DNA of 23,512 nucleotides from Thermoproteota archaeon (GTDB taxonomy: Archaea > Asgardarchaeota > Jordiarchaeia > Jordiarchaeales > Freyrarchaeaceae), in NCBI GenBank assembly GCA_029258835.1, contig JAPDJY010000015.1, forward strand, positions 1-23,512. The letters are read 5' to 3'. Below are positions 19,912 to 20,066 of the stretch, in pieces. Position numbers and translations under genes: made by a program. Position 1 is the stretch's first letter. Every line of letters starts with the position of its first letter. The notes below the pieces were generated by a model that saw nothing but the letters and a program-made list of their open reading frames with translations, was not told the DNA's origin and ran no database searches.

Positions 19912-20066
19912 CTGGGCACCGTGGCTGGAAGTCAAGCCCGCATGCGATCCGGTGAGTACTGCTGTGCGGGAGCCAGTGGGAAAGCCGGGTGCTGGTGTCA
20001 CGGCGCCGGCCATAGCATGCGGGGTCTACCCGTTCCCATTCCGAACACGGAAACCACGGTGCCCAG
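19912..20066 (+). other. 5S rRNA precursor unit bracketed by a 13-bp processing helix with BHB-like bulges
   Basis: CTGGGCACCGTGG (19912-24) is the perfect reverse complement of CCACGGTGCCCAG (20054-66). Moving inward there is a 3-nt bulge AAA (20051-53) on the 3' strand. Next is a 4-position central helix: C25-G50, U26.G49, G27-C48 and G28.A47. Then comes the bulge AA(G) at 19929-31 on the 5' strand. Confidence 0.7.
19931..20052 (+). rRNA. 5S rRNA, circularly permuted gene order (3' part 19931-19995, 6-nt linker, 5' part 20002-20052)
   Basis: The segment 20002-20052, GGCGCCGGCCATAGCATGCGGGGTCTACCCGTTCCCATTCCGAACACGGAA, is the 5S 5' part (helix I 5' strand, helix II 5' strand, helix III and loop C). 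The segment 19931-19995, GTCAAGCCCGCATGCGATCCGGTGAGTACTGCTGTGCGGGAGCCAGTGGGAAAGCCGGGTGCTGG, is the 5S 3' part. Helix II GCATGCGGG/CCCGCATGC (9 bp) and helix I GGCGCCGGC/GCCGG(G)UGCU form only between the two parts. Joined in rotated order they total 116 nt. Confidence 0.75.

Follow-up and report, generated by a model that had tools for sequence, protein, structure and literature searches.

A permuted 5S ribosomal RNA gene of Asgard archaea and its predicted maturation through a bulge-helix-bulge motif

Permuted and circular RNAs described to date

In permuted transfer RNA (tRNA) genes, the leader and trailer of the transcript form a motif of the bulge-helix-bulge (BHB) type, and RNase P and tRNase Z open the circular intermediate again at the acceptor ends. 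Such genes carry the 3' half upstream of the 5' half within one transcript (Cyanidioschyzon merolae and Thermofilum pendens; cited in PMC4267664). Here we describe a 5S ribosomal RNA (rRNA) gene with the same order of parts, located at positions 19912-20066 of a 23,512-nt stretch of contig JAPDJY010000015.1 (this whole stretch is referred to as the window). We put at roughly 0.8 the probability that it is a functional permuted 5S rRNA gene of an Asgard archaeon (Jordarchaeia, or 'Freyarchaeota') whose product is re-joined via a BHB and is probably circular. The likeness to tRNA ends at the final step. The circle of a permuted tRNA is reopened at its acceptor ends, whereas the former ends of the 5S rRNA are sealed by a stable tetraloop, and reopening is therefore unlikely.

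The signal recognition particle (SRP) RNA of Thermoproteus tenax offers a second parallel. The gene of this structured housekeeping RNA 'could not be found' and is permuted, with the 3' part encoded first, as in the window (Plagens et al. 2015, PMC4731332). A BHB surrounds its new termini and is the target of the tRNA-splicing endonuclease, after which ligation re-creates the functional sequence and leaves a circular mature RNA, all of which resembles the pathway proposed below. The SRP RNA is, however, not ribosomal, and its permuted gene was reported for some species of one crenarchaeal genus, whereas the 5S arrangement was seen in contigs carrying the labels of most Asgard classes. The SRP RNA also has RNA-seq and biochemical proof, whereas the permuted 5S is known here from sequence alone.

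Archaeal 23S rRNA is likewise cut at a BHB and ligated, and the circular or re-cut form is the one borne by ribosomes (PMC12918454; PMC7758197; bioRxiv 10.64898/2026.03.23.713588). In that case the gene is collinear and only the RNA is circular or permuted, and these papers state or assume that 5S rRNA is exempt. Circular 16S and 23S transcripts have been seen in Asgard metatranscriptomes (PMC12918454), and a 2026 paper describes 16S and 23S 'but not 5S' as circularised. Low-level circular 5S reads from Sulfolobus were not validated and derive from a collinear gene (PMC3326292).

Permuted 5S rRNAs are known only from organelles, with another breakpoint and no ligation (PMC4267664). In the mitochondrial examples of brown algae and other stramenopiles (mtPerm-5S; Valach et al. 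2014, PMC4267664), helix I is sealed into a hairpin, as it is here, and the genes were missed or scored low by the standard model and were recovered with a dedicated covariance model. They differ in being organellar, in having their ends at the alpha/gamma domain junction without a BHB, and in yielding a linear, permuted RNA with no ligation; the breakpoint in the window lies in domain beta (helix III/loop B) and within a BHB. A study in Escherichia coli (PMC7283268) shows that a 5S rRNA without native free ends, engineered as a permuted 5S fused into 23S, can support life; that molecule is artificial, bacterial and a covalent part of 23S rather than a free circle. A search of full-text literature, with most subscription journals uncovered and an earlier description therefore possible, found no description of a permuted or BHB-processed archaeal 5S rRNA. 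This agrees with an earlier note on this DNA, made from the sequence, whose author knew of none.

Rotated order, fold and covariation of the 5S unit

Every hallmark of 5S rRNA can be read directly from positions 19931-20052 of the window, in rotated order (Table 1). The Rfam model of 5S rRNA, RF00001, finds no match in the window at its gathering score (38 bits). In permissive E-value mode it returns two half-matches below this cut-off: 20002-20052 corresponds to model positions 1-51 with top posterior probability (30.6 bits), and 19931-20000 corresponds to model positions ~56-120 (26.0 bits). The positions of the half-matches thus imply a rotated rather than a collinear order. For the permuted layout, a covariance model (R1; 149 positions, 48 pairs) was built from 52 units of other lineages, with the window and its near-twin, JGI contig L087, left out of the training set. 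R1 gives a single end-to-end match at 19915-20063 (130 bits, E = 8.9e-36). The rotated window sequence is identical to the RF00001 consensus at 86 of 116 positions, compared with 39 for the unrotated sequence, and its consensus alignment score is 43 against 5.3 +/- 2.0 for shuffles. When all 122 rotations were compared, the best ones began within a few bases of the natural 5' end.

Folded as a circle, the 122 nt adopt the canonical three-way junction of helix I, helices II-III and helices V-IV. A perfect 9-bp helix II bridges the two pieces, and helix I forms 8 bp capped by CACG. The conserved 5S loops are present: loop A (CCAUAGC), loop C (CCGAAC), loop E/D (GAGUACUG...UGGGAAA) and loop B (GGAAGUCAAG), the last of which is complete only once 20052 is joined to 19931. 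We found no second 5S-like copy in the window.

Most of what the earlier note had read from this locus is borne out by these results: the 5S hallmarks in rotated order, the perfect 9-bp helix II shared by the pieces and the lack of any other 5S half in the window. Its interpretation is supported too, as the computational checks that it had suggested turned out in its favour; the permuted layout scores far higher than the collinear one (130 bits with R1 compared with 30.6 and 26 bits for the separate RF00001 halves). Its free 6-nt linker between the pieces has to be given up, as these bases belong to the helix I stem and its CACG tetraloop.

Table 1. Features of the permuted 5S unit in the window
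Feature	Position	Strand	Basis or remark
TATA-like box TTTATATT	19881-19888	+	31 nt 5' of first base of leader helix; predicted archaeal promoter
Leader strand of 13-bp outer (processing) helix, CTGGGCACCGTGG	19912-19924	+	In-register pairing in relatives
Central 4-position BHB helix, 5' strand CUGG	19925-19928	+	Partner ACGG, 20047-20050
5' bulge AAG	19929-19931	+	Predicted cut 19930/19931, from textbook BHB rule
5S rRNA, 3' two-thirds	19931-19998	+	RF00001 partial match, circular fold, pair counts
Helix III base and loop B, then helix II 3' strand CCCGCAUGC	19937-19945 (helix II strand)	+	Within 3' two-thirds
Helix V/loop E/helix IV/loop D	19947-19990	+	Within 3' two-thirds
Helix I 3' strand	19991-19998	+	Partner 20003-20010
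CACG loop capping helix I	19999-20002	+	Folds; site of the free 5' and 3' ends in normal 5S
5S rRNA, 5' third	20003-20052	+	RF00001 partial match (model 1-51), pair counts
Helix I 5' strand	20003-20010	+	Within 5' third
Loop A, CAUA	20011-20014	+	Within 5' third
Helix II 5' strand GCAUGCGGG	20015-20023	+	Perfect 9 bp with 19937-19945
Helix III	20028-20035 with 20043-20050	+	Within 5' third
Loop C	20036-20042	+	Within 5' third
ACGG	20047-20050	+	3' strand of BHB central helix (precursor) or lower helix III (mature)
3' bulge AAA	20051-20053	+	Predicted cut 20052/20053
Trailer strand of 13-bp outer helix, CCACGGTGCCCAG	20054-20066	+	Perfect complement of 19912-19924
T5 run	20072-20076	+	5 nt past helix; likely archaeal terminator
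Predicted excised and ligated 122-nt 5S rRNA	19931-20052	+	A20052 would be joined to G19931

Relatives were collected with a metagenome scan for the pattern GTACYG N14-18 GGGAA N45-75 CCGAACNCGGAA, an order that is possible only in a permuted gene or in a tight tandem. The scan returned 102 stretches, 64 of which carry the 5' junction motif GGAA-GUYAAR at the right spacing, and yielded 53 distinct cores of 119-134 nt, the window's own core counted; two further stretches are cut by contig ends. Chance matches in coding DNA numbered ~36, with ~35 expected. Six additional permuted loci were reached via neighbouring genes, bringing the total to ~70 other contigs. A separate scan of genome contigs with a four-anchor pattern requiring CCAYAGC gave only six chance matches, all bacterial, and missed even this organism; loop A in most Asgard 5S rRNAs is CAUGG or CAAAG.

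Every carrier that was given a name is Asgard, with Jord/Frey-, Njord-, Heimdall-, Hod-, Wukong-, Loki-, Thor- and Hermodarchaeota-type labels represented. For most of them the name is the label of MAG (metagenome-assembled genome) proteins 80-100% identical to the neighbours of the 5S locus: Njordarchaeales/-ia (L066, L059 and L040), Heimdallarchaeota/Promethearchaeota (the L051 family and L102), Freyarchaeota/Jordarchaeia (L049), Wukongarchaeota (L045) and Lokiarchaeota (a large AT-rich family). The names Thor, Hod and Hermod come from how a gene next to the 5S locus is labelled within the MAG itself. R1 also matches the Heimdallarchaeota 1.39-Mb contig CP070665.1 at NCBI (113 bits), Logan contig L115 (113.8 bits), in which a proteasome-subunit gene is labelled Heimdallarchaeota by NCBI, and NCBI MAGs labelled Thor- (137 bits), Hod- (82 bits) and Hermodarchaeota (59 bits, the last match being cut by the contig end). 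The relatives with the same arrangement that the earlier note had asked to be sought are thus at hand. The locus belongs to a class of permuted Asgard 5S rRNA genes that is widespread and has apparently not been described before.

Pairs were counted in a MAFFT alignment of 54 sequences, made without fitting to a structure. RNAalifold recovered the fold partly from this plain alignment, and the structure used was transferred from the window fold and the Rfam annotation. For the mature 5S fold, 88.2% of cells are paired and the covariation score is 0.473, a value reached by 0 of 500 shuffles (shuffled mean 0.163), with slid partners giving at most 0.13. The precursor fold, which includes the outer helix, has 79.3% of cells paired and a score of 0.454 (shuffled mean 0.171, 0 of 500 shuffles reaching it, slid partners at most 0.16). 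Changes on both sides of a pair are seen for seven of the nine pairs of helix II, all seven of helix V, six of eight in helix I and five of eight in helix IV. Helix III shows compensatory changes in two pairs, and its base pair U19932-A20028 covaries (UA46/CG7/AU1). The three outer-helix pairs on the bulge side covary as well (GC47/UA3/AU1; CG29/GC10/UA10/GU2/AU1; GC18/AU17/CG9/UA7). As the helices, the flanks and the BHB all lie outside the search pattern, the covariation evidence is independent of how the loci were found. The compensatory changes in helices that span the break bear out the view that the two pieces are co-adapted rather than decayed. What is observed directly is the permuted anatomy, the fact that it is conserved and covaries, and how widely it occurs among Asgard archaea.

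The sequence is a metagenome assembly, and a mis-join or a collapsed tandem 5S repeat could in principle produce a rotated gene. An independent Logan assembly is, however, identical across 381 bp of the locus, and contig L087 differs by one base within the 5S unit. In addition, ~70 further contigs from many samples and assemblers, including the 1.39-Mb CP070665.1, share the architecture. An assembly artefact, which the earlier note had named as a threat to its reading, is accordingly very unlikely.

The processing motif, the junction and the end state

Candidate motifs were compared with the hBHBh' definition of PMC7714728. The outer helix of the window (CTGGGCACCGTGG paired with CCACGGTGCCCAG) is perfect over its 13 bp, exceeding the minimum of two Watson-Crick pairs in that definition, and is present in the minimum free energy (MFE) fold of 19900-20075 (-88.8 kcal/mol, z = -4.0). 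The bulges, 3 nt each and on opposite strands, flank CUGG/ACGG, and each strand consists of a 4-position helix strand followed by its bulge, giving a two-fold symmetric layout. This register is kept in ~50 of the 54 units. Their 5' strand reads outer helix, CYGG (or CCGA), AA-G, and their 3' strand reads NCGG, AA-N, outer helix. Central positions 1-3 are paired in 53, 54 and 54 of the 54 loci and position 4 in 36, and in these 36 relatives all 4 bp of the central helix form, with bulges of 3 nt in the register that the earlier note had put forward. Nearly all loci have AAG as the 5' bulge, and two have ACG; the 3' bulge is AAN wherever the register is shared. Most Loki-type units have CCGG/CCGG, with four Watson-Crick pairs, and the BHB is part of their unconstrained MFE fold (free-energy difference, ddG, of 0).

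Some Lokiarchaeial loci depart from this pattern on the outer side. In AT-rich examples (L026:7783-7941 and L015:1325-1484), the outer helix beside the BHB is just 3-6 bp long and a conserved trailer motif, AUGUGGUUA, pairs with UAACCACAU farther upstream, so the processing stem is bipartite in these lineages. Some of the AT-rich leaders have an additional hairpin, GUAGC...GCUAC.

In the model that we propose, the primary transcript would run from just past the TATA box to the T-run. The leader and trailer would form the 13-bp helix, stacked on the short CUGG/ACGG helix to give a relaxed BHB. The archaeal splicing endonuclease, EndA, would cut each bulge behind its second nucleotide, at 19930/19931 and 20052/20053, and the ligase RtcB would join A20052 to G19931, recreating the universal CGGAA-GUCAAG segment. 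Joining would free ACGG for helix III and restore the bulged AA. With helix I permanently closed by its tetraloop, the product would most likely be a 122-nt circle, covalently closed and taken into the ribosome in that form. The mechanism would amount to the known BHB cut-and-join pathway acting on a new substrate. No EndA or RtcB gene was found within the window.

Several points weigh against this model. (i) The cleavage, the ligation, the circularity and the enzymes responsible are what we infer from the observed anatomy. (ii) The central helix of the window consists of C-G, U.G and G-C pairs and a G.A mismatch, short of the canonical four pairs. Of the geometry set out in the earlier note, the perfect 13-bp bracketing helix (also found in the MFE fold) and the two bulges on opposite strands, 4 positions apart, stand, with three pairs and the mismatch between the bulges. 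(iii) The central helix and lower helix III, with its four Watson-Crick pairs, compete; ACGG is the 3' strand of both, so the two pairings are mutually exclusive. (iv) The BHB is not in the MFE fold of the window, and the BHB conformer lies 4.6 kcal/mol higher. (v) The helix on the excised side, h', comprises at best G19931-C20046 and U19932-A20045, and only with a 2-nt 5' bulge; the first pair is invariant and the second is paired in 46 of 54 units without compensatory change. (vi) At the fourth central position, the helix III partner covaries (GC41/UA11/AU2), whereas the BHB partner does not (GC34/GU2, with 18 unpaired). (vii) Contigs L069 and L091 lack a clear outer helix in register. (viii) Conservation of GUACYG, GGGAA and CCGAACNCGGAA is not independent evidence, because the search pattern fixed these motifs. 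(ix) The Asgard names of the carriers are borrowed from the labels of similar or neighbouring proteins. (x) Only 23.5 kb of the genome is visible, which leaves room for a collinear 5S copy elsewhere, and the passages of PMC9723677 that bear on the matter list a Jordarchaeum MAG with a 5S gene, the method of detection being absent from those passages.

The motif in the window is therefore best called a relaxed rather than a canonical BHB. Asgard archaea have an (alpha-beta)2 EndA of broad specificity with an L1 specificity loop (PMC5829648), and the relaxed BHB fits both that enzyme and the multi-intron tRNAs of this organism; the putative tRNA-Trp of the window, with three introns, is counted here as fitting the splicing machinery. 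The two contigs of point (vii) have intact 5S cores (L069:5690-5848 and L091:1458-1617), and it is the leader-trailer helix that is not obvious in the usual register.

The two facts in point (x) would also fit a decaying rearranged copy, with a collinear 5S gene elsewhere supplying the ribosome. Such a relic is difficult to reconcile with compensatory changes that maintain the helices across Asgard classes, with intact universal loops and with the unit's own promoter and terminator. Furthermore, 20 other permuted loci were examined and had no 5S at the Rfam cut-off and no collinear 5S nearby, and 5S genes 'could not be predicted' in closed Heimdallarchaeum genomes (PMC8813620). We consider a relic or pseudogene very improbable. 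A decaying remnant of a tandem duplication was rejected on the same grounds. How the functional gene arose is a different matter: the terminal direct repeat CCGGAA and the short spacer of helix I may be the remains expected of a tandem duplication followed by trimming, and since CCGG is self-complementary, such a repeat would immediately supply a central BHB helix.

Support for the joining of the two ends comes from the junction. The predicted product, ...CCGAACACGGAA joined to GUCAAGCC..., contains CGGAA-GUCAAG, which is the conserved 5S consensus, as the earlier note had anticipated for the loop B/helix III junction. Each of the two strands carries GGAA, so the ligation product does not depend on where inside it the symmetric cuts are made. 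The effect is seen in a second Jord/Frey lineage (L049:314-463), where the BHB is shifted by 1 nt and is fully canonical (CGUG/CACG, bulges AAA and GAA); owing to the repeated GGAA, its cut-and-join product has an unchanged junction sequence. A BHB in the usual register was rejected for L049 (ddG +20.9), and the shifted motif was found by inspection.

A second breakpoint is provided by a Hodarchaeota-labelled MAG (GCA_048886165.1, JBHLKX010000004.1; L118, 5921-6055), where the gene is opened inside loop C, 20 nt away. The 5S unit there (5931-6050, 120 nt) begins CCAUCCGAAC... and ends ...UACCCGGUC, and it has its own BHB (outer helix AGCG/CGCU, central helix CUGG/CCGG, bulges AAC and UCA). Joining its ends restores UACCCGGUC-CCAUCCGAAC, which is contiguous in the common type, and with it loop C; conversely, GGCAGUUAAAC is broken in the common type and contiguous in L118. 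The circle predicted for L118 is thus the circle of the common type (GGAA-G, ~70 loci). Two breakpoints with one predicted circle leave ends that are hard to explain unless they are joined, and a differing breakpoint with its own BHB and the same circle argues strongly for ligation.

It could nevertheless be supposed that the RNA stays linear and permuted, with ends trimmed by EndA or other nucleases and left free at helix III/loop B. Organellar permuted 5S rRNAs such as those of brown algal mitochondria do remain permuted (PMC4267664), and in the mature fold a nick would sit at the AA bulge beside paired segments. The two breakpoints speak against this, as ends left unligated would fall into a different conserved element for each breakpoint, loop C being one. 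Likewise, the symmetric CYGGAA repeat, the in-register BHB and the shifted BHB of L049 are expected for cutting and joining rather than for trimming. BHB cleavage, moreover, leaves the very ends that RtcB joins. A permuted linear 5S rRNA is therefore quite unlikely.

The fate of the joined molecule depends on helix I. In every sequence its cap is a 3-5-nt loop on a covarying stem, with UUCG, a very stable loop, in at least 23 of the 53 distinct sequences, and it looks like a permanent closure rather than a processing site, which favours a mature circular 5S rRNA. The alternative is that the circle is only an intermediate, reopened in or near the cap so that the ribosome receives a linear 5S rRNA. 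Permuted tRNAs are finished by reopening, and re-linearisation of the circular precursors of 16S and 23S rRNA is an accepted route in cultured archaea (PMC12918454; PMC10515664); nuclease action on the cap would be compatible with the data. The cap, however, has no conserved A/U-rich or other cleavage motif, and the stem reaches the loop. The one change in L087, U19998 to C, turns a U.G pair of helix I into C-G and so improves the pairing. The SRP RNA of Thermoproteus (PMC4731332) and many archaeal 23S rRNAs (PMC12918454) also remain circular. We regard the intermediate-only case as unlikely and retain the mature circle.

A broader proposal, on which we are tentative and would give somewhat less than even odds, is that all or nearly all Asgard archaea make their sole 5S rRNA from a permuted gene and carry it in the ribosome as a circle, the trait being ancestral and the breakpoint having moved at least once.

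Implications and the surroundings of the locus

5S rRNA has been treated as 'essentially constant' and easy to find, and reviews exempt archaeal 5S from BHB circularisation. Neither assumption agrees with a permuted and probably circular 5S found across the archaeal group nearest to eukaryotes, and the short list of permuted genes that the tRNA-splicing machinery repairs would gain a rRNA. The permuted layout would explain why 5S genes seem absent from Asgard genomes. Because 5S genes escape prediction in Asgard genomes, closed ones included, Asgard MAGs do not satisfy the 5S requirement of the 'high-quality draft' standard; these genes are recovered with a covariance model for the permuted order, of which R1 is an example. 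The two breakpoints that give one predicted circle constitute a natural experiment. If the trait is ancestral to Asgard archaea, then eukaryotes, whose 5S is collinear and linear, either reverted or took it over from a never-permuted lineage; if true, this would be a discrete molecular character bearing on the branching position of eukaryotes, and a clear-cut trait for Asgard and eukaryote evolution.

The TATA-like box and the T5 run suggest that the 5S unit is its own small transcription unit. TTTATAT is also found at -31/-30 in the other two Jord/Frey-type loci (L087 and L049), TTTAAAA or TTTATAA at -33 to -49 in Njord-type loci, and T-runs follow the trailer in L087, L049, L045, L059 and L060. 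Proteins encoded in the neighbourhood include the PolD large subunit, subunits of pyruvate:ferredoxin oxidoreductase and tryptophanyl-tRNA synthetase (TrpRS, gene trpS). The closest relatives of the TrpRS are labelled Candidatus Freyarchaeota/Jordarchaeaceae (Asgard archaea). The 5S unit was not found upstream of trpS in relatives whose TrpRS is 80% identical (L002:3740-5095 and L005:3715-5095), so its place between tRNA-Trp and trpS may reflect an insertion, or a retention, peculiar to this lineage. In L002 and L005, compared with window 19594-21261, a multi-intron tRNA lies directly upstream of trpS. A different neighbourhood is conserved elsewhere: the order C25-family cysteine peptidase (~715 aa), permuted 5S, small membrane protein (~180 aa) occurs in L018, L026, L058, L081, L118, L119, L120 and others, on contigs labelled Loki-, Thor-, Hod- and Hermodarchaeota.

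Farther upstream of the 5S unit, ~400 nt (19196-19593) have no open reading frame call and no Rfam match, and the fold of 19283-19445 is at the level of shuffled sequence (z = 0.2). The tRNA gene at 11763-11874 (- strand) scores 39.8 bits with Rfam and has 57 nt in place of 18 model positions. ARAGORN, allowing introns, reads it as an odd tRNA-Val(CAC) with a 21-nt intron at 31/32, and the tRNA-Phe with a canonical intron that the earlier note had named is not confirmed. Just upstream of the 5S unit and the TrpRS gene, a 213-nt tRNA gene (19594-19806, + strand) is missed by both ARAGORN and Rfam. It has inserts of ~18 nt in the D-loop, ~104 nt in the anticodon loop and ~17 nt in the T-loop, and when these three are removed in silico ARAGORN mostly calls a tRNA-Trp(CCA). 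The ~104-nt insert contains GAUGAUGA and CUGA, a pair of motifs that is box C/D-like by eye only.

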